A DNA stretch of 48,591 nucleotides from a virus: the UHGV virus genome UHGV-0185643. One strand, given 5' to 3'. The stretch's first letter is position 1. Every line of letters starts with the position of its first letter. This document shows, in pieces, positions 1,063 through 47,731 of the stretch. The translations under genes and the position numbers were made by a program. Below the pieces are notes generated by a model. It did no database searches. It was not told the origin of the DNA and saw nothing but the letters and a program-made list of their open reading frames with translations.

Positions 1063-1452
1063 TCACATCACTGGGCAGTCATCAAACTCCGCGTTCCTGG
1101 CATCATTAATGATGTACGTGATAACACCAAATATTGCGTGTGAAGAATTATAGCCATCACCGTCTTCTGGCAGCACTTCTCTTCTCCCGTTCTCCAGATT
1201 TATCAGGTGGGGCTGAGGGTGAGTTCGGTATCGCTTGATCCTGAATTCCCCATCTATCGCGCATATCAGCAGCGAGCCATCACAGGCTGAAAGCGACGCG
1301 TCCACAACAAGTAGTGCCCCCTGGATTATCCCTTCCCTGAAATGTGAACACGATGCCCGCATGAAATAAGTCGCTGCGGGCTGGCTGATTAGCTGTTGAT
1401 CGAGGGAAATCCTTGTTTCAACGTAATCACTGGCAGGTGAAGGGAAGCCCAT
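1063..1452 (-). CDS. UmuD'/HumD-like S24 peptidase-fold protein starting directly at the GFPSPA motif (no N-terminal arm, no cleavage site)
   Basis: Translation MGFPSPASDYVE...DGEFRIKRY aligns by eye to UmuD from its post-cleavage residue; longer ORF 1063..1551 trimmed to the internal Met because the upstream ORF stops at 1455; no umuC follows. Confidence 0.7.
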   Translation of the reverse strand: MGFPSPASDYVETRISLDQQLISQPAATYFMRASCSHFREGIIQGALLVVDASLSACDGSLLICAIDGEFRIKRYRTHPQPHLINLENGRREVLPEDGDGYNSSHAIFGVITYIINDARNAEFDDCPVM

Positions 1453-1454
1453 GG

Positions 1455-1694
1455 CTATAGTCCTCCGTTTGGATTGAAAAGCTGAAAGGTACGGTTCTCC
1501 CCTTCCTGCGTTGATACATCGCGGAATGATGTCACATACCACTCGATCCATTCGTTAGCCTGCTTCATCGTCCAGTTCCAGTTAACCTTGCTCAGTTCCT
1601 GGACAAACCGCTGTGTGGTGACGGTCTTCCGGCCATTAGGTTCTTGCTGTATCGAAGCATGCCAGGCCATTTCAATATCGCTGCGTCGTGGCAT
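1455..1694 (-). CDS. Hypothetical small protein (79 aa) immediately upstream of, and probably co-transcribed with, the UmuD'-like gene
   Basis: ORF with ATG at 1694 preceded by GAGGGG Shine-Dalgarno at 7-nt spacing; stop 3 nt before the UmuD'-like start. Confidence 0.45.
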   Translation of the reverse strand: MPRRSDIEMAWHASIQQEPNGRKTVTTQRFVQELSKVNWNWTMKQANEWIEWYVTSFRDVSTQEGENRTFQLFNPNGGL

Positions 1695-1736
1695 CAATTA
1701 ACCCCTCTTGAATACCGGATAAAAACACAGTATAAA

Positions 1737-1772: not shown

Positions 1773-2015
1773 ATGTTCGTGGAACTCGTTTATGACAAAA
1801 GGAATTTTGATGGGCTGCCTGGTGCAAAAGATATCATTCTGGGCGAATTGACCAAGAGGGTTCACCGGATCTTCCCCGATGCTGATGTTCGGGTTAAACC
1901 GATGATGACACTGCCGGCGATCAACACTGACGCCAGCAAGCATGAGAAGGAACAGATAAGCCGTACTGTTCAGGAAATGTTTGAAGAAGCTGATATGTGG
2001 CTGGTTTCAGATTAA
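1773..2015 (+). CDS. DinI-family protein (80 aa)
   Basis: Length and C-terminal motif EKEQISRTVQEMFEEADMWLVSD resemble DinI (…QRISEILQETWESADDWF…); preceded by an SOS-box-like site. Confidence 0.65.
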   Translation: MFVELVYDKRNFDGLPGAKDIILGELTKRVHRIFPDADVRVKPMMTLPAINTDASKHEKEQISRTVQEMFEEADMWLVSD

Positions 2016-34051: not shown

Positions 34052-34258
34052 TCACCCCCAGACCTTTTGCCGAAAGGTTCTTGGTGTACGCGCCGGATGC
34101 TCGCATTCAGGTAATTTTGCGCTAACAGTCCAGGTGATATTGTCGCGATTCAGGCTGCGTTCTACCGTGGCGCCGCGGCGTCGGTAACAGGCAATAAGTT
34201 CGTCGGCCTGCTCGGTTGTGCATTCGTGATGGTGGAACCAGGAAAATTTCATCGCCAT
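34052..34258 (-). CDS. Hypothetical nin-region protein (68 aa)
   Basis: ATGA-coupled to the upstream gene. Confidence 0.4.
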   Translation of the reverse strand: MAMKFSWFHHHECTTEQADELIACYRRRGATVERSLNRDNITWTVSAKLPECEHPARTPRTFRQKVWG

Positions 34259-34860
34259 CACCCCGCAAAACTCATAAGCTGCGCAGCGGCGTTTTCCGCT
34301 TCTCGCTGAGTCTTGAATGCCCGGGACAATACCCAGCGCCACAGAACATCGAGCGCGGCTTTGTAAAGTTGCTGGAACTCGGTTTCGTCCATGTTGGCGA
34401 AAGCTATGCTGCGGGGGTGTTTACGAAGAGTTCCGTCAGGTAGTTGAATTGCGTCGTAGTGGCCGGCCTCGACAATTACCCAGGCACGGTACGCGTCAAA
34501 GGATTTACACAGGCTGATCCCATTGGTAACTCGGCGACTGGCTACCTGCTCCAGATACTGCTCGGCAGCATCCAGCAGTGCGCCTTCGTTTCCACCAAAT
34601 GCCGCGAGGAATTTAGCATAACCATTTACGAGCTTACGCTCATTGCTGGATATCGCCCCTCCAGTAGGTTCCCAGTATTCAAACCCGAGATTCAGGAGCG
34701 CAAAAAAACGGCGATGGAATGCGGGATTCCTCACCTGGCGAAATTCGGCTACCAGCACGGCACCGAGTTTGATTTTTGATTGCAGAATATCGCTGGTCTC
34801 CGGCGTCGCGGGGATCAGGATTCCTGATGACTGCTTGATGAGTTGTAGTTCGTGCGCCAT
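34258..34860 (-). CDS. Nin-region protein of unknown function (200 aa)
   Basis: ORF in the nin region; family not assignable by eye. Confidence 0.5.
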   Translation of the reverse strand: MAHELQLIKQSSGILIPATPETSDILQSKIKLGAVLVAEFRQVRNPAFHRRFFALLNLGFEYWEPTGGAISSNERKLVNGYAKFLAAFGGNEGALLDAAEQYLEQVASRRVTNGISLCKSFDAYRAWVIVEAGHYDAIQLPDGTLRKHPRSIAFANMDETEFQQLYKAALDVLWRWVLSRAFKTQREAENAAAQLMSFAG

Positions 34861-34942
34861 GGTATTCCCCGTGGCGCATAATTGTCAGGTTACTGGTTGT
34901 TCAGGCCAGTGACAGAATTATGATTGGGTACGTAGCATTAAG

Positions 34943-35164
34943 TCAATTTTTAGAAGTCATCTCCCTTACAACTTCCATGATGGTTTCTTTGGACCAGTAC
35001 AATTCATCTCTGGATAATTTTCTGTTAGTTACAGAACCGGCCTTGGCTGAAAGGATGTAGCGTTCATCCGCTGCAAGTCCGAAAGACAAAAGCTCCCGAC
35101 CTTTCCCATCGGTTATGATCACCCGTAAATTATCAGCAAGATCTGATTGGGCTATATCTGCCAC
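34943..35164 (-). CDS. Hypothetical protein (73 aa)
   Basis: ORF only. Confidence 0.35.
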   Translation of the reverse strand: MADIAQSDLADNLRVIITDGKGRELLSFGLAADERYILSAKAGSVTNRKLSRDELYWSKETIMEVVREMTSKN

Positions 35165-35273
35165 TTAATCCCCCTGAGCGACATACAGACGCGATTAAAG
35201 AATGTCGGCAGCAGCATCAAAGGGATACACATTTTGGTATTCTGATAAATGCGCGCCAGCCTTAAGCGCAATT

Positions 35274-35507
35274 CTAATAAAACCAGTCGTCAGCGCTTTC
35301 CCAGGTATCCTGGAGGATTGATTCAATTTTCTTTTTATCGTCCTTGTCACCGCCAAAAACACTTAACCCATCCGACCCGGCACGGCGGATTGTGAGCCTG
35401 CAATTGTCATAGTGATCATTCAGGCGCTTAAGCAATTCTTTCTCCAGTGCAGGAACCGCGCCTTTAGGAAGTTCTTTCATACGATCAATGGTTAATTCAA
35501 CTTTCAT
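35274..35507 (-). CDS. DinI-family protein (second paralogue)
   Basis: MKVELTIDR...KKKIESILQDTWESADDWFY closely resembles the DinI C-terminus; perfect LexA box upstream. Confidence 0.75.
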   Translation of the reverse strand: MKVELTIDRMKELPKGAVPALEKELLKRLNDHYDNCRLTIRRAGSDGLSVFGGDKDDKKKIESILQDTWESADDWFY

Positions 35508-35525
35508 AATGGCCTCCAATGCATA

Positions 35526-35545
35526 TACTGTGTTTTTATACAGTA
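35526..35545. promoter_or_regulatory. LexA (SOS) box TACTGTGTTTTTATACAGTA upstream of the DinI-like gene
   Basis: Perfect CTGT-N8-ACAG palindrome with TA flanks, 19 bp upstream of the start codon. Confidence 0.7.
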
Positions 35546-35814
35546 TACCTATGAGAGGAAATGATCAACGTTTTAAGAGCACAAATTGTTAATTTCCTGT
35601 CAGGAATAAAAAAAGAAAACCCGCCGTAGCGGGTTGAATTCGTGATGGTTTATAAAGATGTAATTTCTTTCTACTGACAAATCTATGGCTACCCATTTAC
35701 CCTCAAACGTGAATACAGCATACGCGCCGACATACTGATTATCTCTTTGTGGATCGGGATATGATCAACCTTCTGCCAGAACGTAAAACTTGATGCCGCT
35801 GACAAATAAACAGC

Positions 35815-36075
35815 TCATTGTTTCTTCTCGTTCTGGGCTGCCATATCCAGATAGCGCGGGTCGGATGCTCTCGGTAATGTCAGACTTTGCTCGCGATAGT
35901 AGCGCACACGCTCCATGAAGTATTCGCGGAGATGCTCTGGCTGATCACGGGCTTCCTGTTCAGCGATAACCGGCATGTTCAGGCGCTCTTTGTCCGCTAC
36001 TCCGGATGCTGCAAAGTCAACGTTAACCTTGTCCTGCTCTTCTTTCGGCTTGGCTGCAATGTTATGGTTGGACAT
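35815..36075 (-). CDS. Hypothetical protein (86 aa)
   Basis: ORF only. Confidence 0.4.
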   Translation of the reverse strand: MSNHNIAAKPKEEQDKVNVDFAASGVADKERLNMPVIAEQEARDQPEHLREYFMERVRYYREQSLTLPRASDPRYLDMAAQNEKKQ

Positions 36076-36165: not shown

Positions 36166-36570
36166 TTACTTTAATTTATATATTAAACAATCCACAATAT
36201 CCAAACCATTAACCATACTATTTGAAAGTCGAACTTTGCTATTTTCAATAGAGAATGCTCCTTTCATCATTTTATAAATAAAAGCAGACTCTCCTTTAGC
36301 TTCGATTGCTTCAAGTGGTATGGAATGGTATTTATTTGATCTATTATCTCTATTGATTTGACTTATAAGGCTATAAACGAATGTAGGCCCTTTCTCCTCA
36401 AGATCACTTATTACCAAAATATATTTCCAAGAAAACATTTCCCCATAAAAAAACCACATGGCAGCGGATAAAGCTACTCCTTTCTTCTCTAACTCTTTCA
36501 TTAGAAATTGGCCAGAATTTTCCATAGAGGTCGTCATTGAGTGACCTATTACCAGTGACTTCTTACCCAT
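36166..36570 (-). CDS. Hypothetical protein (134 aa), downstream partner of the HEPN-like gene in an AT-rich cassette
   Basis: ORF overlapping the upstream gene by 22 nt; strongly AT-rich; no recognised motif. Confidence 0.45.
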   Translation of the reverse strand: MGKKSLVIGHSMTTSMENSGQFLMKELEKKGVALSAAMWFFYGEMFSWKYILVISDLEEKGPTFVYSLISQINRDNRSNKYHSIPLEAIEAKGESAFIYKMMKGAFSIENSKVRLSNSMVNGLDIVDCLIYKLK

Positions 36571-36971
36571 TGCAAAACTCCAGATTGATTATTCTCAGCT
36601 GCTTCGATGAGCTGCTCCGCCATAGCCCGACTGATAGTAGTTTCGTAGCGGAGTTGTTCACTCCAATCCTTCATAACAGTCCAAAATATTTCAAACTGCC
36701 CATCCTGGGCAGCTAATTGTCTATGTGATAGTTGTAGGCTCGCCACCTGCATGAGCTTTGTTAGATCATGAACATGTGAGTCCATGGCTAACTTCTTGTC
36801 AGGAAATTGAAATGCCGTCACATTTTTTGCTATACATGCTTTAAGAGCGCACTCAACTGCGTATCCGCAGAGGTAGTATGCACCATGATATAATCCATTC
36901 TGTAACAGACATTTTGCTTCCGTTAACCTTATACCAGTTAAAACTTCTAGGTCAGATTTATTCATTTGCAA
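36549..36971 (-). CDS. HEPN-like alpha-helical protein (140 aa)
   Basis: N-terminal helix pattern AKCLLQNGLYHGAYYLCGYAVECALKACIAK resembles the HEPN signature; downstream SHVH; AT-rich. Confidence 0.5.
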   Translation of the reverse strand: MQMNKSDLEVLTGIRLTEAKCLLQNGLYHGAYYLCGYAVECALKACIAKNVTAFQFPDKKLAMDSHVHDLTKLMQVASLQLSHRQLAAQDGQFEIFWTVMKDWSEQLRYETTISRAMAEQLIEAAENNQSGVLQWVRSHW

Positions 36972-39610: not shown

Positions 39611-40150
39611 TCATACAACCCCCAGCATCAACTGCACCATCTCCATCAGCGGACCGGTTAAGCCAGGGTCAACGCGGTACATCTCCACGATCCCCTCGCT
39701 CAGCTCTTTCAGCTTCTGATGACGCGGCGCATCCATTGCGACAGCTATCTTCGCTTCGCTGGTTTCCTTCTCCATACGTGCCAGGCGAGCCATGATGTTG
39801 TCTTCTGGCAGCAGGCGGTTGCGGTATTCAATCGGCAGAACTGCGAGGATTGCGGGAGTCAGCTGGCGAACGTTCTCGCGGTACCGCTCGCTGTTGAAAT
39901 GGTTATCGAGGAAGCGGAAAAGCTTCTGGCGCTTTCGGCAGAGATCATCAGGGAAAGTGATGTCGTCACCACCCTGCGCCTGGTACTCTTCGATGATCAG
40001 AGCAGTAACTACGTCCTGACCATCAGCACCAGCCCAGGAGCGAACCGCATCACGAATATCTTCGTGGCTCGGCCCCCTGCGTGCTTGAGCGCGATTTATC
40101 ATTACCCCTTGAGTAATATCGCTATCATTCTGATAAGTAAGTGTCTGCAT
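39611..40150 (-). CDS. YdaT-like regulator (CII functional analogue of Rac-type prophages)
   Basis: Segment RQLTPAILAVLPIEYRNRL resembles Rac YdaT (…IPAILAILPRELRHRL…); position after the Cro-like gene. Confidence 0.55.
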   Translation of the reverse strand: MQTLTYQNDSDITQGVMINRAQARRGPSHEDIRDAVRSWAGADGQDVVTALIIEEYQAQGGDDITFPDDLCRKRQKLFRFLDNHFNSERYRENVRQLTPAILAVLPIEYRNRLLPEDNIMARLARMEKETSEAKIAVAMDAPRHQKLKELSEGIVEMYRVDPGLTGPLMEMVQLMLGVV

Positions 40151-40161
40151 GATTAAGCCTC

Positions 40162-40380
40162 CTAACGTGGCAAACCATCTGTTGGGTTTGGGTAAATATC
40201 ACTACGGACCTCATGCGGAGTGATTTTCCAATCGAGTAAACGGCAAATTGGAAGCACGCGGTGCGCAGGAACCTCGTGGTTTAACCAAAGGCTGACCGCT
40301 TGAGACGTAGTGCCAAGATTTTTCGCTATTTCTGTTTGCGTCATAACCGCACAAACACGTTGTTTAATGGAATTTGTCAT
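40162..40380 (-). CDS. Cro/YdaS-like HTH regulator
   Basis: HTH TQTEIAKNLGTTSQAVSLWLN; divergent from the repressor gene; start trimmed to MTNSIKQ. Confidence 0.65.
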   Translation of the reverse strand: MTNSIKQRVCAVMTQTEIAKNLGTTSQAVSLWLNHEVPAHRVLPICRLLDWKITPHEVRSDIYPNPTDGLPR

Positions 40381-40486
40381 ATGCAACCCTCGGATATTGA
40401 AATTCAAGATTACAACATGAAAAAAATATTTTCAATCCTGAATGAAAATAATCTTTGCAATGCGGAATGAAAGGCTACCTTGTAGA

Positions 40487-40906
40487 ATGGAAGACATGAA
40501 AAAAGCACCCAACGAAGCGTTTGCCTACCGACTTCAGCTCGTCAGAGATGAGTTCGGTTGGAACATGTCAGATATAGCCCGGAGAGCGATGGTTACTCCC
40601 CAGGCAGTGCAGCAATGGGCCAAAGGAGAGTCAGCTCCAAGAGGTGAGCGCTTAAAGCGTCTCGCTGCAGCTGCTGGAAAGCCCGAACATTGGTTTTTCA
40701 TGCCACCAAATACCGAAGGTGAAGATGCTGGGGTGCATGAGCCACCGCGGCAACTGGATGAAAAAGAAATCGCACTGCTTACGTTGTTCAATCAAATGCC
40801 AGAAGCTGAAAAGCTACGTTTGATAGTGCATGCCAAGGCTACCTTGAGAGAGCTTGATCTCCTCAAAGATGATGTGTCTAGCATCATTCAAAGTATTCAG
40901 AAGTAA
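40487..40906 (+). CDS. Prophage repressor, XRE-type HTH, no S24 peptidase domain
   Basis: HTH MSDIARRAMVTPQAVQQWAKGE; about 140 aa; start uncertain (40442, 40487 or 40496). Confidence 0.6.
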   Translation: MEDMKKAPNEAFAYRLQLVRDEFGWNMSDIARRAMVTPQAVQQWAKGESAPRGERLKRLAAAAGKPEHWFFMPPNTEGEDAGVHEPPRQLDEKEIALLTLFNQMPEAEKLRLIVHAKATLRELDLLKDDVSSIIQSIQK

Positions 40907-40923
40907 AATCCCCCCTTCTTTTT

Positions 40924-40949
40924 AATGCAATCAGTCAGTTGATTGCATT
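40924..40949. promoter_or_regulatory. Perfect 10-bp inverted repeat AATGCAATCA-6 nt-TGATTGCATT immediately after the repressor stop (operator or weak terminator candidate)
   Basis: Exact reverse-complement arms read from the sequence. Confidence 0.4.
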
Positions 40950-41099
40950 TTCACGCCATCAATTGAAATTATTATTTTCATTTCGCTTGCATATTGCAAT
41001 TTTCATTTGTATTGTTACTGACATCGACAACAAGCGCATCGTTGTCAGGTTCAAGAAACGTTCCGCCAGCCTGGCGACAAGGGCAAAGAGGGGATTGAG

Positions 41100-41300
41100 A
41101 TGCAAAACAACCACACAATACCAAACAGCGGCCGCGCAGTTGCAATGCGTAACCAGCGCACCGGCGCAGCATGGCTGGTCTCTTTTGATTACCGCGAAAG
41201 CATGTACTGGCACGAACCGCAGGGCAACCTGCGCCACATCCGCCGCCCGTATGCTTCCCGCACCATTGAACCGAATCTGGTTCTGGCTGGTACGCACTGA
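41100..41300 (+). CDS. Hypothetical small protein (66 aa)
   Basis: ORF downstream of the repressor in the early-left operon. Confidence 0.4.
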   Translation: MQNNHTIPNSGRAVAMRNQRTGAAWLVSFDYRESMYWHEPQGNLRHIRRPYASRTIEPNLVLAGTH

Positions 41301-41497
41301 TGAACACTCTTTTCGCGTTAGTGCTGACCATTGGCATGACCAACGGTGATTATCAGGATGTTGTACTGGGTGTTTATGGCGACCAGCAGCAATGTGAGCA
41401 GGCAGCTGTTGAGCAGCAGGTTTCAGGTAGCTGCTACCCAGTTGAAAGGATCATCAGTAGTGAAGAATTACCTGCTCAGGCAGACGTTAAGTTCTGA
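41300..41497 (+). CDS. Hypothetical small protein (65 aa) with hydrophobic N-terminus
   Basis: ORF; N-terminal MNTLFALVLTIGMTNG. Confidence 0.35.
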   Translation: MNTLFALVLTIGMTNGDYQDVVLGVYGDQQQCEQAAVEQQVSGSCYPVERIISSEELPAQADVKF

Positions 41498-41501
41498 GGA
41501 A

Positions 41502-41666
41502 ATGATGATGCAGACCAAATGCGGTTATTGCAACAAGCCGGTTAAACCGGAAGAAGTAATCAAAAGCACCCTTCTCTATCGCAACGGCTCACAGCTGGCA
41601 CGCAAAGAGAAAGAGTATTGTTCCAAACGTTGCGCTTCGCACGACCAGATGGCTCACGAAGGCTAA
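41502..41666 (+). CDS. Small zinc-ribbon protein (54 aa)
   Basis: CGYCNKP ... CSKRCASH cysteine pairs; GAGGA upstream. Confidence 0.45.
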   Translation: MMMQTKCGYCNKPVKPEEVIKSTLLYRNGSQLARKEKEYCSKRCASHDQMAHEG

Positions 41667-41805
41667 CGTAAAACCCGCGCAAGGCGGGATCTACGTCCGG
41701 TGCCACCGACCAAAGTTACACCGGAAACAACATCAAAACCAAAGTTAACCCAATGGGCGCTATCAATGGTCCGGGGATTCTAACACCCAAAAATGAGGAT
41801 CTCAC

Positions 41806-44736
41806 ATGGAATTTCCATATGTAGTTAAAGCCACACAAAAGTCGGGAAAGCCTGATGCTTTTGTCTGGTTCACTGCAAAAACTGAGGCTCGCGCCAACCT
41901 GATGCTGGACGTTGCTCTGGAAGACGCTGGCATCGAAACCGGCCGTGGTAAGGACTACGCCAAGCCTATCCGCACTGACTTCCCAGTTGTTGATGACCTT
42001 CCGGAAGAAGGTGAAGTTGATTTCACCTGGTGTGATCGTTACGAACTGCAGGACGACGGGCGCATCTGGCTGCCAAAGGCCGCTGGCGACGTTGTCACCA
42101 CTATCCCTGCCGATGTAAAAAATACCGATGAAGTAGCGACATCTGACGAGAATGTATCGTTAGAAAACCGCACTCCAGCAGTCCGTTTTGCCTTCCATCT
42201 GATGAGCGATAAATACCAGACTCACGTCACTAAAGAGCAGCAGCTGGCTGCCAGCGAAATGTCACTGGACGAAAGCAATACCTATCTCCAGAACTTGCTG
42301 CAGGTTAAAAATGATGTTCCTGAAATTGGCGAACTCAGTCTGAATGCTGAGTGGAAAATGATTCAGGCGATTAAAGACATCTTCGAACAGGGTGAAGAGC
42401 ATGAACCTGAAGTGATCGCTGCTTTCATGTCTGACTGGGTGAACGCAGAAGCAGGTGATCGCAATCAACTGGTTGAAGACTGGCGCAGTGGAAAGTTTCC
42501 TCTGCTCAAAACTGAAACCACCAGCGTTGGTGATGAAGTCGGTCCCGAAGAACAATCTCAGCAGCCAGAGCAGCCGAACCTGATCGTCGTAGCCACCCTG
42601 CCATTCCGTCAGCGCGTACTGGCTCAGTTCATCGGTAATGGTGAATATCTCTATCACGTCGATGCCGCGCAGAAAAAAGAGATTGTCCGCCTTGAGATGG
42701 ACACTGATGACACGTACATCCAGAACCTGCTGCTGGCTGCTGAGAATGTGGAGGCATTCAAAAAAGCCATTGAGCACGATATTCATAAAGTCGTGAATGC
42801 CGTTAAGAAAGTCTTCCCTGTCGACGGTAAGAAACCGGAGCTGGCAACAGTTATCCAGTTCCTGACGGTGTGGTTCAAAACTGAATACATCGATCGCGGC
42901 CTGCTGGTCAAGGAATGGCAGAAAGGCAATCGTGTAACAACCATTAATCGCACACCTTCAGGTGCGAACGCCGGCGGCGGCATTGTCTCTGACCGAAAAT
43001 TCCCGCAAACCATTCTCGGTCTGGAGCATGAGATTGCTCTGGCGTTACGTGCCCGTGACCGCGAATTTGATATTTACAACGTCCCTCTGGATATAGAACT
43101 ACAGGCAAACTCCATCATGAATAAGATGGACGATCCCGAATGGCTGGCGACTCGAGAGAGATTCGTTTCAATTCCTGGTGGCCTGGACTACTCACGTGCC
43201 TGCATCATCGCAACAGTAAAAACCACACCAGAGGGGCTTTATGCTGATCCTGTAAAACACCAAGAATATTTGAATAGAGTACTTACGGAAACCGACCACG
43301 CCAACCCAGATCCATTGCTCGTTGATATAGCCTGCGGTCGTTCGTCTATGCCTGTACCTATGAAACAGGAAAAAGTAACGGCCGAAGAGGTAAACAAAAT
43401 TCTTGCAGCTTCCCGCGGAGAATATGTCGAGGGGATTAGTGACCCTACAGACCCGAAATGGATCACAGAAGACCTCGCATTAACCGCCCAACAAATAGAT
43501 GACCGTTCACCACTTAATAAGGAAACCACCAGCAATGTGCAGATGGAAGAAACTGTCAGTGATGAAGAGCAGTCAGGCGAAAGCAGTCTGGAAACTGGTG
43601 AAGAGTCACATACCGGCCAGCAAGCCGATGTAAACCAGAATGCGGATTCTGTCGCCCAAAATAGCGATTTTGTAAACCAAACCGAACCGGTTGCGGCACA
43701 AATCAAGCCAGAATCTCATTCTGACGAACCGGCTGTTGTGTACCCTGCTTACTTTGAGCCAGGCCGCTATGAAGGATTGTCGAACGAGGTTTATCACGCA
43801 GCGAACGGTATCAGCTCAACCCAGGTGAAAGACGCACGTGTCAGCCTGATGTTCTATCACGGCCGTCACGTGACCAAGACTATCCGTCGCGAAAGCAGCG
43901 AGGCGCTGACGTTAGGTAGCCTGGCGCACACCCTGGCCCTGGAGCCCGAAAAGCTCCACGAAGAGTTTGCGGTATTCCCAGGTATTCCGGCTGAGGCGTT
44001 TACCACCACCGACTCCATGAAGGCGTTCATTCGAGAATTTAACGCGGATAAGCCAAAGGCCGAGCAACTGAAGCTCACCGGTAAGAAAGAAGAACTTCAG
44101 GCGGCGATACGCGCGGTCAGCCCGGAGGCCATTTTCGCTGATGAATTTGAGCAGCAATGGCGTGATAGCGTTGATGGGAAAACCATCCTGTCCAGAGAAC
44201 AACTGACGCTGGCCACGGCAATTCAGCAAGCCCTACTGAATCATGAATCAGCCGGGAAACTGCTGCGCCATCCTTCCCGTTCAGTGGAAACCAGTTATTT
44301 CGGGATGGACGACGAAACCGGTCTGGAAGTCCGTGTGCGCCCTGACCTTGAGGTTGAAATCAACGGCGTTCGTATCGGTGTTGACCTGAAGACGATCAGC
44401 ATGGGACGCGTTAAGCAAGACGGTTTGCGCGCCAAACTGCACCGGGAAATCATCGACCGCGACTACCACCTCAGCGCTGGCATGTATTGCTCCGTTGCCG
44501 ACTTTGATCAGTTCTTCTGGATCTTCGTCAACAAAGACGAGGGCTACCACTGGGTGGCGGTAATTGAGGCATCGGAAGATTTGCTCGACCTCGGGCTGCT
44601 GGAGTATCAGCGCACCATGCGTGCACTCGCAAATGCGTATGACACCGATTGCTGGTCTGCACCGATAACCGAAGACTACACCGACGAACTGAACGACTTC
44701 GACCTGCGCTGCCTTGAAGCGCTGCGTCTGGCTTAA
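41806..44736 (+). CDS. recE: RecE-like exonuclease VIII (976 aa)
   Basis: Large protein immediately upstream of a RecT-like gene; acidic linker; C-terminal nuclease-like region; GAGGA RBS. Confidence 0.65.
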   Translation: MEFPYVVKATQKSGKPDAFVWFTAKTEARANLMLDVALEDAGIETGRGKDYAKPIRTDFPVVDDLPEEGEVDFTWCDRYELQDDGRIWLPKAAGDVVTTIPADVKNTDEVATSDENVSLENRTPAVRFAFHLMSDKYQTHVTKEQQLAASEMSLDESNTYLQNLLQVKNDVPEIGELSLNAEWKMIQAIKDIFEQGEEHEPEVIAAFMSDWVNAEAGDRNQLVEDWRSGKFPLLKTETTSVGDEVGPEEQSQQPEQPNLIVVATLPFRQRVLAQFIGNGEYLYHVDAAQKKEIVRLEMDTDDTYIQNLLLAAENVEAFKKAIEHDIHKVVNAVKKVFPVDGKKPELATVIQFLTVWFKTEYIDRGLLVKEWQKGNRVTTINRTPSGANAGGGIVSDRKFPQTILGLEHEIALALRARDREFDIYNVPLDIELQANSIMNKMDDPEWLATRERFVSIPGGLDYSRACIIATVKTTPEGLYADPVKHQEYLNRVLTETDHANPDPLLVDIACGRSSMPVPMKQEKVTAEEVNKILAASRGEYVEGISDPTDPKWITEDLALTAQQIDDRSPLNKETTSNVQMEETVSDEEQSGESSLETGEESHTGQQADVNQNADSVAQNSDFVNQTEPVAAQIKPESHSDEPAVVYPAYFEPGRYEGLSNEVYHAANGISSTQVKDARVSLMFYHGRHVTKTIRRESSEALTLGSLAHTLALEPEKLHEEFAVFPGIPAEAFTTTDSMKAFIREFNADKPKAEQLKLTGKKEELQAAIRAVSPEAIFADEFEQQWRDSVDGKTILSREQLTLATAIQQALLNHESAGKLLRHPSRSVETSYFGMDDETGLEVRVRPDLEVEINGVRIGVDLKTISMGRVKQDGLRAKLHREIIDRDYHLSAGMYCSVADFDQFFWIFVNKDEGYHWVAVIEASEDLLDLGLLEYQRTMRALANAYDTDCWSAPITEDYTDELNDFDLRCLEALRLA

Positions 44737-44750
44737 TGGAGGATTTGACC

Positions 44751-45791
44751 ATGCAAAATACCAACATCATTACGACCGAGCAGGCACCAAACACCATTTC
44801 CGCCAGCAACGCTGTGTTCAACGTGCAGGCACTCGGCCAGCTTACCTCTTTTGCTGAATTGATGGCGCAGTCTGTCGTCACCGTCCCCAAACACCTTGCG
44901 GGGAAACCCGCCGACTGTATGGCTATCGTCATGCAGGCTATGCAGTGGGGAATGAACCCATATGCAGTTGCCCAGAAAACACACCTGGTCAACGGTGTGC
45001 TGGGTTACGAAGCGCAGCTGGTTAACGCAGTGATCTCCAGTTCCAGCGCCATTATTGGCCGCTTCCATTACGAGTACGGCGGTGACTGGGAGAAGATCGC
45101 CGGGAAAAAAGACGGTCGTGATGAATTAGGTCTGTTTATCCGGGTTGGCGCCGTACTGCGCGGAGAAGAAGAAATTACCTGGGGCGAGCCAATCTACCTG
45201 GCAGATATCACCATACGTAACTCGCCACTGTGGAAAACAGCGCCGAAGCAGCAGATCGCTTATCTGGCAGTGAAGTACTGGGCTCGCCTGTACTGCCCAG
45301 AAGTCATCCTCGGCGTCTACAGTCCAGATGAAGTTGAGCCACGCACTGAGAAAGAGATTAACCCGGCGCCGCAACGCGTTAGCCTGGCCGATATTTCAGG
45401 TGACACCGTCACAACCACGCAAAGCGCACAGGAATCGTCGGTAAATATCGACTCTCTTGCCGATGATTTCCGCGAACGAATCGATGCCGCTCAGGATGTT
45501 GATAGTGCAAAAGCACTGCGCGCTGATATCGAAAGCGCGAAGGCCACACTCGGATCAGCCCTGTTCACCGAGCTGAAGAATAAGGCAGTGAAACGCTATT
45601 ACCTGGTTGATTCACGTAACAAGGTTGAGGCCGCGATCAACTCCCTGCCGTCTCCGGACGAACCGGATGCAGCTGAACGGTTTGGGGAAGTTGAGCGAGT
45701 TCTTGCAACTGCGAAACGTCATCTGGGCGACGAGCTGCACGATCAGTTCAGCATCACCCTGGCGGATATGAAACCGGAATACGTTGGCTAA
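44751..45791 (+). CDS. recT: RecT-family single-strand annealing recombinase
   Basis: Coupled to the recE stop (TAATG overlap; GGAGG SD before ATG at 44751); RecT-like core. Confidence 0.65.
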   Translation: MQNTNIITTEQAPNTISASNAVFNVQALGQLTSFAELMAQSVVTVPKHLAGKPADCMAIVMQAMQWGMNPYAVAQKTHLVNGVLGYEAQLVNAVISSSSAIIGRFHYEYGGDWEKIAGKKDGRDELGLFIRVGAVLRGEEEITWGEPIYLADITIRNSPLWKTAPKQQIAYLAVKYWARLYCPEVILGVYSPDEVEPRTEKEINPAPQRVSLADISGDTVTTTQSAQESSVNIDSLADDFRERIDAAQDVDSAKALRADIESAKATLGSALFTELKNKAVKRYYLVDSRNKVEAAINSLPSPDEPDAAERFGEVERVLATAKRHLGDELHDQFSITLADMKPEYVG

Positions 45792-46118: not shown

Positions 46119-46319
46119 ATGGATGATATTTTGCTGACGTCAGACCTGACCAGTCGATACAAAATCTCACGTAAAACCCTTTGGTCATGGCAAAGCACAG
46201 ACACGATGCCGCGGGGTTTTGCGAAGCCGTTCCCCGCCCCGGACTTCCCCGGTAACCCTAACCGCTGGAAGTCGGAGTCAGTCAAAGAGTGGGAAGGTGT
46301 GAAACAGCCAATTAACTGA
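46119..46319 (+). CDS. AlpA-family excisionase / transcriptional regulator
   Basis: Motif [20 protein letters not shown]; adjacent to the integrase gene; GGAGA RBS. Confidence 0.7.
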
Positions 46320-47505
46320 ACGGCTCACCGATGATGTTTTCAAGATGGCTCTGCCAAACGTGGAGCCAGTGTTTTTGATCATCGATGTAGTCATGCAGGT
46401 TATAGTGCGCCATCACGCCAACCATTTGGTGACCAAGTAACTTTTCAATCACATGCGGCGGACAGCCAAGTTCTGAAAGATTTGTTGCGATTGTTCTTCT
46501 CATATCATGGAGAGACCAGGGCTCCATGCCGGATTCTGACCAAATATACCTGGCGTAGTTCGAAGCAACTGGCGGATGAACCGGGACGTCTTTAATTTCC
46601 CCATCCAATAAGCGCTGTGAAGTGACTAAATGCTTTGTGTTGATCTTCTCAAGATGATTTTTTACCAGTCCCACCGCAGCATCAGAAAGAGCCCTTCTCA
46701 TGTGCACTCGCGTTTTGTAACTTCCAGCAGGAACTATCCATTCATTTTCATCCAGCTTGAACCATGACCTTTCGCTTAACCGAATCTCTGCCGTCCTACA
46801 GCCGGTCAACATAATAAATTTCACAAGAAACACGGACTCTATGGACATGCGGTTTTGCAGCCACCGATAAATAGCCACCAGCTCACGATCATCCAAGCGC
46901 CGCGTTCTCTTTTTCGGTTTTTGGCCAACGTCAGTGGGTAGCAATCCCTCGAGCGGATTGGTCGATATTACGCCTCGGTTAATACAGAACCTGAATGAGC
47001 GTTTGCACAGCGAAAGCATATAATGAGCCATCACCCTGCTTTCAATCTGATCAAAAACATCTATCCAGTGCCTTTTTGTCGAATTGTCGACTTTGACGTT
47101 TCGCATCGGTTCGGCGATATGCTTGGCAAATACCAACTGATAATAACCTGTCTTTGTCAGTTGATTAGCGATGCAGTGTTTCTCGATCCAATAATTGAAT
47201 GCTTCCGATACGGCCATGGAACCTTCGCGGGTCAATTTCTCCAGCTTTACTTGCTCTCGGGGATCGAGTCCTTCAGTAAGCCAGATTCTGAATTGCTGAC
47301 GCCTTTCCCTTGCCTGAGCAATACTCATTGCTGGATAATCGCCGACATTGAGTTTTACAGCTTTGCCTGCCCATCTGTACCGGTAGAAGAAAGAGACCTT
47401 TCCGGCCAGACTGATTCTTGCGTTGAGTCCGTGAGAATCTGAAATAATTTCGATATCATCGCGTTTCTTGCCAAGGGCCTTCCTGAGCTTTGTGTCAGTG
47501 ATCAT
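46312..47505 (-). CDS. int: Tyrosine integrase (P4/CP4-57-like, N-terminal arm-binding domain)
   Basis: N-terminal [10 protein letters not shown]...FFYRYRW arm-binding-type domain; C-terminal catalytic motifs HDMRRT ... LGHQ ... HY; start trimmed to an internal Met. Confidence 0.85.
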
Positions 47506-47731
47506 TGAATAGGTACACATTTGGCTTTTGAGTACGCAAAAGTGTACACAAAACTCATTGCTCAAAGATACCCACAATGTAACACTTGTACTCGGAGTGT
47601 GATAATTGGAAGGCTGAAAGGCAGGCGGCAGAAGGGTTCAACGTAACAGAACGTTTTTATGCGAAATTCTTCGAAATGGGCTGAATGACAATACAAAAAA
47701 GTATTTTAAAAACAAAACAAAAACAGACATT

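Follow-up and report, generated by a model that had tools for sequence, protein, structure and literature searches.

The immunity region

The virus genome UHGV-0185643, a stretch of 48,591 nucleotides (nt) called the window throughout, contains at positions 40162-41666 what is, judged by gene content and homology, a Gifsy-type immunity region belonging to a lambdoid Citrobacter prophage; its repressor, and the means by which that repressor might be removed when the prophage is induced, are the subject here. The repressor, a helix-turn-helix (HTH) protein, is encoded divergently from a Cro analogue of the YdaS family. Its gene is followed by a perfect 10-bp inverted repeat lying 17 nt past the stop codon, within the 193 bp of non-coding DNA that separate it from the first of three small open reading frames (ORFs) of 66, 65, and 54 amino acids (aa) (Table 1). 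A preliminary description of the region had named each of these elements, and all of them, with the sizes of the small ORFs, are borne out. It had also reported that the interval is free of LexA boxes, which agrees with the finding that the best 20-mer in 40100-41800 matches the consensus at 11 of 20 positions; the box that would be relevant lies outside, at 35526-35545.

In Citrobacter sp. Cpo045 the exact 72-aa sequence of the Cro analogue bears the annotation 'YdaS family helix-turn-helix protein', and it is 50% identical to the putative Cro analogue of Gifsy. The gene that comes after it, just outside the interval, encodes a YdaT-family protein, so that by Pfam the cro/cII side of the region has the Rac-type arrangement. 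Near-identity DNA searches of E. coli genomes and phages returned mosaic pieces only; the window does not come from E. coli, and look-ups of exact protein sequences indicate Citrobacter.

Table 1. Features of the window, grouped by locus (positions are those of the whole stretch)
Feature	Position	Strand	Basis or remark
YdaT/CII-like early-right gene	39611-40150	-	Pfam YdaT_toxin 6.8e-26, 91 bits (cut-off 21); phrog_163 'CII-like transcriptional activator' 2e-56
Cro analogue, YdaS family, 72 aa	40162-40380	-	Pfam YdaS_toxin 1.1e-10, 41.6 bits (cut-off 30)
Candidate right operator OR1, TGAAAAAAATATTTTCA	40418-40434	.	0 mismatches, perfect palindromic half-sites
Candidate right operator OR2, TGAAAATAATCTTTGCA	40443-40459	.	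1 mismatch; 25-bp direct-repeat register, 25 bp from OR1
Possible weak right operator OR3, TGAAAGGCTACCTTGTA	40468-40484	.	25 bp from OR2; overlaps putative repressor promoter (PRM) -10 TAGAAT
Putative PRM -10 hexamer TAGAAT	40483-40488	+	conservation
Prophage repressor, 136 aa	40496-40906	+	HTH domain, variable linker, short helical C-terminal block; HTH_3, GtgR homology
Probable intrinsic terminator hairpin of repressor gene (10-bp inverted repeat), then TT giving ATTTTCA	40924-40949	+	fold and covariation
Candidate left operator OL1, TGAAATTATTATTTTCA	40964-40980	.	1 mismatch; 3' of repressor gene
Candidate left operator OL2	40989-41005	.	weaker half-site; 25 bp downstream of OL1
Putative early-left promoter PL	40987-41015	+	-35 TTGCAT 40987-40992, 17-nt spacer, -10 TATTGT 41010-41015
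Conserved left-operon leader, ~80 nt	41020-41099	+	near-invariant GACAAC-N9-GTTGTC repeat; second, variable hairpin
66-aa ORF, first of left operon, accessory	41100-41300	+	phrog_3722 1.3e-40, 'unknown function'
65-aa DUF1482/YebW-family ORF	41300-41497	+	Pfam DUF1482 1.1e-21
54-aa YdaE-family zinc-ribbon protein, linked to recE	41502-41666	+	NCBIfam YdaE_coli 8.5e-28
recE, early-left recombination gene	41806-44736	+	Pfam Exonuc_VIII 1.1e-34
recT, early-left recombination gene	44736-45791	+	Pfam RecT 1e-32
Intrinsic terminator, AACCCGCTACGGCGGGTT then TTCTTTTTTT	35618-35635	-	would insulate SOS operon from upstream transcription; aligns with terminator upstream of Gifsy dinI
Putative dinI promoter	-35 TTGATC 35563-35568; -10 35540-35545	-	-10 overlapped by LexA box
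LexA box, TACTGTGTTTTTATACAGTA	35526-35545	.	17/20 consensus, CTGT-N8-ACAG; aligns with Gifsy LexA box
DinI homologue, first gene of SOS operon	35274-35507	-	66% identical to Gifsy STM2621; phrog_189 DinI 1.1e-26
Putative antirepressor, GftA homologue, 73 aa	34943-35164	-	GTG start; GGGGGA Shine-Dalgarno 5 nt upstream
irsA homologue (DUF1367, NinB-like), third gene of SOS operon	34258-34860	-	93% identical to Gifsy STM2620; Pfam DUF1367 1.5e-96
HumD-family UmuD'-like protein	1063-1452	-	Gly2 aligns with UmuD Gly25
80-aa ORF	1455-1697	-	phrog_3893, unknown; 'DNA polymerase V' or hypothetical in phage records
Second DinI-like gene	1773-2015	+	at second SOS locus
66-aa ORF, suspected excisionase	46119-46319		no Pfam match
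Integrase, Arm-DNA-bind_3 domain	46312-47577	-	right end

The repressor

The repressor ORF runs from 40442 to 40906 on the plus strand and could encode at most 154 aa. ATG 40496, which gives 136 aa, is the likely start, because NCBI calls the identical Citrobacter protein WP_286637828.1 from it and because the alignment with GtgR begins at the same residue. HTH_3 (1.2e-10) is the sole Pfam family above its curated cut-off, the two other matches being to weaker HTH families, and Pfam gives no match to Peptidase_S24 at E ≤ 0.01; the earlier account of a repressor of about 140 aa with an HTH only is thus confirmed. Across all of its length (136/136 residues) the protein is 53% identical and 71% similar to STM2628 of LT2 Gifsy-1, which is the same protein as GtgR/GftR of Gifsy-2 (PMC3121763) and is likewise a 136-aa, HTH-only repressor. 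In contrast, BLASTP similarity to K-12 RacR (30% identity over 44 residues, E = 3e-4) covers the HTH only and falls short of homology to RacR as such, and the score against the NCBIfam DicA model NF007257 is 46.9 bits for a cut-off of 101, which places the protein outside the DicA subfamily. By homology, the repressor is of the Gifsy-2 type, and the designation of the region as Rac-like, which holds for YdaS and YdaT, does not extend to it.

Conservation divides the repressor into three parts. The mean fraction of 43 distinct relatives that match the window residue falls from 0.80 across the HTH block to 0.42 in a linker of about 25 residues and returns to 0.80 over the last 43 or so residues. 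A single-sequence AlphaFold2 (AF2) model, used for secondary structure only given its mean predicted local distance difference test (pLDDT) score of 64, shows five helices on the N-terminal side of a disordered linker and three on its C-terminal side. This low-confidence model is all-helical and without a beta-rich fold; it leaves no room for an S24 fold and gives no sign of one. A search of solved structures with the repressor returned a chance-level match only (E = 0.0097), the matched chain being one of 57 residues with the name 'Exoenzyme T'.

An in-frame ATG at 40442 would lengthen the repressor to 154 aa; this ATG and the one at 40496 flank the putative PRM -10 hexamer. The 154-aa form is annotated in one metagenome record, DAZ53621.1. 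The arrangement parallels that of Gifsy-3, in which a long form of the repressor, GfhR*, accumulates after mitomycin C (PMC3121763).

A probable SOS operon with a GftA homologue

On the minus strand, 5.3 kb from the repressor gene and beyond the replication genes, is an operon in which a terminator, a promoter with a LexA box, dinI, a 73-aa ORF, and irsA follow one another in the order seen in Gifsy, where this unit is also found downstream of O and DnaC-like replication genes; the upstream region aligns with that of Gifsy as well. The 73-aa ORF is 75% identical to GftA of Gifsy-2 (STM2621.1n) over 73/73 residues, and its GTG start parallels the GUG start of GftA. It is the sole GftA-family copy in the window by hidden Markov model (HMM) and by BLASTP/tblastn, and scores 121 bits on the GftA-family HMM, a value that is not independent since the ORF is itself one of the six GftA-like sequences from which the model was built. 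LexA-type sites matching at least 17/20 positions number two in the window vs none in 200 dinucleotide shuffles. The DinI homologue matches the NCBIfam DinI model at 1.2e-25 and 89.7 bits, under the 111-bit equivalog cut-off.

In Gifsy, the antirepressor GftA is the product of the small GUG-initiated ORF that dinI and irsA flank. Expressing gftA is by itself enough to induce the prophage, a lexA3 allele blocks induction, and the repressors are not cleaved when induction takes place; in vitro, GftA releases GtgR from operator DNA, and the GftA-GtgR complex is consistent with an A2B2 heterotetramer (PMC3121763). Because the window repressor lacks a self-cleavage domain, an antirepressor should be needed for induction here also. 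That such a protein was probably required, and that it might be encoded elsewhere, had been put forward in the preliminary description, and the GftA homologue under a LexA box in the same prophage fits this expectation well.

The antirepressor was probably overlooked because the databases leave its family unnamed. Its match to phrog_4847 (1.5e-38) is labelled 'unknown function', Pfam and NCBIfam give no match, and within its 90%-identity cluster each of the 13 named members is called 'hypothetical protein'. As a consequence, Gifsy-type prophages of Citrobacter and relatives would appear to lack an induction trigger. A search of solved structures with the antirepressor gave no match, and its single-sequence AF2 model (mean pLDDT 55) is unusable. 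Among the early-right/nin, lysis, left-arm, and prophage-end ORFs, Pfam detects no antirepressor domain of another kind (Ant, KilAC, BRO).

Just upstream of the SOS-operon terminator is a gene for a homologue of HolE, the theta subunit of DNA polymerase III (35815-36075, minus strand; 95.1 bits vs an NCBIfam cut-off of 97). Between the replication genes and the SOS operon, in the early-right region, there is also a gene for a HEPN-domain protein (36549-36971, minus strand; Pfam 2.9e-6), which shares 22 nt with the beginning of a 134-aa ORF (36166-36570, minus strand) for which no family match was found; this pair may be a toxin-antitoxin or defence insert.

Probable operators, putative promoters, and the inverted repeat

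When the whole 48.6 kb is searched with the 17-mer TGAAAA-N5-TTTTCA, allowing one mismatch or fewer, three sites only are found, and all of them are at OR and OL. OR1 and OR2 are located between cro and the repressor gene. The block that contains OR3 is unchanged in all 13 distinct sequences of the window's immunity clade; assignment of OR3 as an operator, like that of PRM as a promoter, is an inference. About 55 nt past the repressor stop, the position of OL is kept in heteroimmune relatives, while its sequence varies with the immunity type. In each of two relatives (L021 and L030) OR carries the same 17-mer as OL, and in other immunity groups the operator positions are kept and the sequences differ (for example, ACAAG-N5-CTTGT). 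A position that is kept and a sequence that varies by immunity type are what would be expected of operators.

The consensus promoter scan listed none of the early-right promoter (PR), PRM, PL, or the dinI promoter, and the assignments given here come from conservation. Relatives keep both the -10 block of PL, TTGTATTGTTA or TTGTAATGTTA, and the 17-nt spacing. PRM, if correctly placed, would yield a near-leaderless mRNA from ATG 40496.

The perfect 10-bp repeat, AATGCAATCA/TGATTGCATT, has its arms at 40924-40933 and 40940-40949, and by our own estimate the chance expectation for such a repeat with a short loop in 1.5 kb is about 0.01. The preliminary description had treated it as a possible binding site for the repressor. 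That it is bound by a protein, for instance as an extra operator, would accord with its being a perfect palindrome whose outer bases (ATGCA...TGCAT) are conserved within the clade. However, the inner stem positions vary in a compensatory way (among 11 clade sequences, 2/8 consensus stem pairs have compensatory changes and all eight stay paired), GC-rich hairpins of unrelated sequence, with T-runs, occupy the equivalent place in other immunity groups, and the repeat is unlike the OR/OL 17-mer, all of which makes a role in protein binding improbable. As RNA, the repeat folds with an energy of -11.2 kcal/mol (z = -4.7), a value equalled by 0/200 shuffles. The repeat is read instead as the terminator of the repressor gene, which would separate that gene from PL and OL. 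In lambda, cI is likewise separated from PL.

A proposed LexA/antirepressor switch and its distribution

Gene content, homology, synteny, the LexA box, the operator-like repeats, the hairpin, and the co-occurrence of modules among relatives are together read as a Gifsy-type LexA/antirepressor switch, with a probability that we put at roughly 0.85; repressor binding, LexA control, and non-cleavage are carried over by homology to Gifsy (53% identity for the repressor, 75% for the antirepressor). The switch would be split between an immunity module (Module 1, 40162-41099) and the SOS operon (Module 2, 34258-35635, minus strand). The repressor, made divergently from the YdaS/Cro-like protein, would bind 17-bp palindromes at OR (40418, 40443, and perhaps 40468) and at OL (40964). 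The bound repressor would silence both the rightward operon (cro, ydaT/cII, O, and dnaC-like) and the leftward operon (the 66-aa ORF, DUF1482, YdaE, recE, and recT). After DNA damage, active RecA would bring about the self-cleavage of LexA, and the dinI-antirepressor operon would be derepressed. The antirepressor would then form a complex, probably A2B2, with the repressor dimer, which would come off its operators without being cleaved, after which PR and PL would fire.

The distribution of the two modules was followed, with the antirepressor HMM described above, in loci encoding repressor relatives of 57-100% identity, 5 of them from genomes and 80 from IMG/VR; many of these loci are near-duplicates, so that the counts are not of independent events. 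An antirepressor-like ORF is present in 53/62 loci that have at least 9 kb of upstream flank, on the opposite strand and 2.4-9.5 kb from the repressor, and in most antirepressor-bearing loci the 900 bp upstream include a LexA box matching 15/20 positions or more. One independent IMG/VR contig (L009) encodes an identical repressor and has an identical spacing of 5326 bp.

Several observations weigh against the proposed switch. Its functional steps have been transferred by homology at the levels of identity given above, and OL1 does not cover the core promoter but lies upstream of the putative PL -35 hexamer. The repressor linker carries an Ala-Gly dipeptide (EDAGV), though there is no catalytic domain to cut it. 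GftA-family matches are missing from 9/62 full-flank loci; in at least two of these nine (L016 and L039) a LexA box lies at the very edge of the flank, and the module may be cut off. Across 58 loci, the identity of the repressor to that of the window shows no correlation with the identity of the antirepressor (Spearman rho -0.18, p = 0.18). Repressors of a clade 84-87% identical to the window's are paired with either GftA-like or GfoA-like antirepressors, the latter 21-25% identical to the window's, and in one locus (L086) a 99%-identical antirepressor occurs together with a repressor that is 58% identical. GfoA-like antirepressors, about 21-31% identical to that of the window, occur in relatives such as L005, L020, L021, and L026, and GfoA does not act on GtgR (Lemire et al., PMC3121763). 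By this comparison, repressor and antirepressor modules are shuffled freely among relatives. Because the subtypes assort independently and GfoA is inactive on GtgR, cognate pairing in the window phage is not guaranteed by its sequence.

It is therefore conceivable, if improbable, that shuffling has left the window with a GftA-like protein mismatched to its repressor, and that induction takes place through the antirepressor of another prophage in the same cell or only through a spontaneous Cro/repressor switch. Besides the lack of correlation between subtypes, such a reading could draw on the specificities of the known proteins, in that GfoA acts on GfhR and not on GtgR, and FsoA acts on GtgR (PMC3121763), as well as on the finding that the DicA-controlled promoter dicBp turns on spontaneously without Rem or RecA (PMC10448788). 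Against a mismatch stand the recurrence of the identical repressor at the identical spacing in L009, the intact state of the antirepressor ORF, with its Shine-Dalgarno sequence and near-consensus LexA box, and the fact that the GftA-like type acts on GtgR, which is the closest characterised repressor. The LexA/antirepressor switch with the resident protein as its trigger is thus preferred.

A bolder extension of this switch, offered tentatively and considered doubtful, is that the antirepressor docks on the conserved C-terminal block of the repressor and constitutes a broadly cross-reactive SOS adaptor that would co-induce heteroimmune Gifsy-like prophages across the Enterobacteriaceae. It is suggested because the subtypes assort independently and because the C-terminal block is as conserved as the HTH while operators and linker diverge. 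If true, it would turn the pairwise crosstalk known from Salmonella into a family-wide rule.

The small ORFs and the left operon

The preliminary description had also considered that one of the three small ORFs that follow the repressor (66 aa, DUF1482 65 aa, or YdaE-like 54 aa) might be the antirepressor that triggers induction. Their small size and their place adjoining the repressor would suit such a role, and there is a precedent in Fels-1, whose antirepressor FsoA comes from a left operon under repressor control and acts on Gifsy-2 in trans (PMC3121763). However, none of the three is similar to GftA or to the Fels-1 78-aa ORF (relaxed BLASTP, E > 1; tblastn), STM0898.2n, which was taken as the likely FsoA and itself aligns weakly with GftA, and the GftA-family HMM matches the window at 34946-35164 only. 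All three are 3' of OL/PL, with no LexA box nearby. Among 77 related loci, moreover, the 66-aa ORF is present in 18, the DUF1482 ORF in 43, and the YdaE-like gene in 67, compared with 72 for recE; the YdaE-like gene is found almost as widely as recE, and a few loci that retain recE lack it. Finally, FsoA has no apparent role in the induction of its own phage, Fels-1. A small ORF as the trigger is thus very unlikely. The three ORFs are better regarded as variable, repressed cargo of the left operon, which should be silent in the lysogen because they are downstream of the OL/PL operator and promoter, and an FsoA-style role in trans on other prophages, though conceivable, has nothing to support it. 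The YdaE-like protein is 38% identical to K-12 YdaE.

Finally, inactivation of the repressor by RecA-stimulated self-cleavage at the linker Ala-Gly, in the manner of lambda CI, can be practically dismissed, as it had been judged unlikely from the outset: the dipeptide is present in the variable linker, but Peptidase_S24 is absent by Pfam, only about 50 residues, predicted to be helical, follow the linker, and the full-length homologue GtgR, which is without Ala-Gly at the equivalent position, is uncleaved on induction (PMC3121763).

Upstream of these ORFs, the left-operon leader is conserved in 83/89 sequences (88 loci and the window; nhmmer), whatever the immunity type and including Gifsy-1 and -2. 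No Rfam family was matched, with nothing at the gathering threshold for the window, and the folding energy of the leader is unexceptional (z = -0.3). It is possible that the leader is a nut-/put-like antitermination site or a protein-binding site. By comparison it is unrelated to kilS of Rac, and neither the 66-aa nor the 65-aa ORF aligns with K-12 KilR; no counterpart of Rac kilS or kilR was found in the window.

An IsrB-like small RNA (sRNA) is located antisense between the YdaE-like gene and recE (41668-41764, minus strand). The window copy scores 26.4 bits against Rfam isrB, under the gathering score of 35, and has on the minus strand a promoter-like site from 41805 to 41777 and a terminator-like site from 41688 to 41674. 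The Gifsy-1 isrB (99 bits; L001 461-548) has the same syntenic place and the same orientation.

Relation to known systems

The induction mechanism has been known since 2011 in Gifsy; what is new here is a Citrobacter prophage that, on the evidence of its sequence, carries the same wiring. With Gifsy-2 and LT2 Gifsy-1 (PMC3121763) the window shares, in addition to the repressor, the antirepressor, and the SOS unit, a left operon that ends with YdaE-like, recE, and recT genes, the PL leader, and an IsrB-like sRNA upstream of recE. It differs from them in host (Citrobacter vs Salmonella), in operator sequence and hence in immunity, in the genes between the repressor and recE, and in having a YdaT-family cII analogue that finds no match in the Gifsy locus; the window system is also one that has been read from sequence. 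In operon layout, and by inference in mechanism, it resembles Gifsy-1 (GfoR/GfoA) and Gifsy-3 (GfhR/GfhA) of ATCC14028, but GfoA-type proteins are a divergent antirepressor subtype that is not present in the window.

A short, non-cleavable repressor combined with a small antirepressor is likewise found in DicA/Rem of the E. coli Qin prophage, Rem having been identified through its similarity to GfoA and FsoA (PMC10448788). The window repressor falls below the DicA cut-off, as noted above, and the inducing signal of Rem is unknown, whereas the window has a LexA box. K-12 Rac has in common with the window a short HTH repressor, YdaS and YdaT genes that run divergently from it, and a left arm with YdaE, RecE, and RecT, but the window repressor is not RacR-like, and in the K-12 Rac stretch (L002, through trkG) there is no match to dinI, a GftA-like ORF, or irsA and no LexA box of at least 15/20. 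In logic, and as likened by description only, the window system is akin to Tum of coliphage 186 and AntC of N15, LexA-controlled antirepressors that inactivate non-cleavable repressors. Tum is a 146-aa antirepressor-DinI fusion (PMC3121763), whereas in the window the two are separate genes, with DinI first. With lambda CI the window shares a divergent repressor/cro pair, operators in both OR and OL, and possibly a leaderless repressor mRNA; it differs from CI and LexA-type repressors in lacking an S24 domain, and the SOS signal would enter instead through LexA and the antirepressor.

The signature of a LexA box, an optional dinI, an ORF of about 70 aa, and irsA would predict prophages that are SOS-inducible, for example by fluoroquinolones, and would flag possible cross-induction between prophages in polylysogens.

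A second SOS locus and the prophage ends

A second SOS locus is present at the far end of the prophage (1063-2015), where LexA boxes at 1713-1732 (15/20) and 1737-1756 (17/20) lie between divergent genes (Table 1). Because its Gly2 aligns with Gly25 of UmuD, the HumD-like protein encoded there would be made already 'cleaved'. The idea that this protein is without the catalytic Ser was dropped, as BLASTP against UmuD aligns a Ser with Ser60. Near the left end, where ARAGORN finds no complete tRNA, is a fragment resembling the 3' end of a tRNA (…GGTCGGAGGTTCAAATCCTCTCGTGCCGACCA, 880-940), which together with the integrase gene and the 66-aa ORF suspected to be an excisionase probably marks the ends of the prophage.

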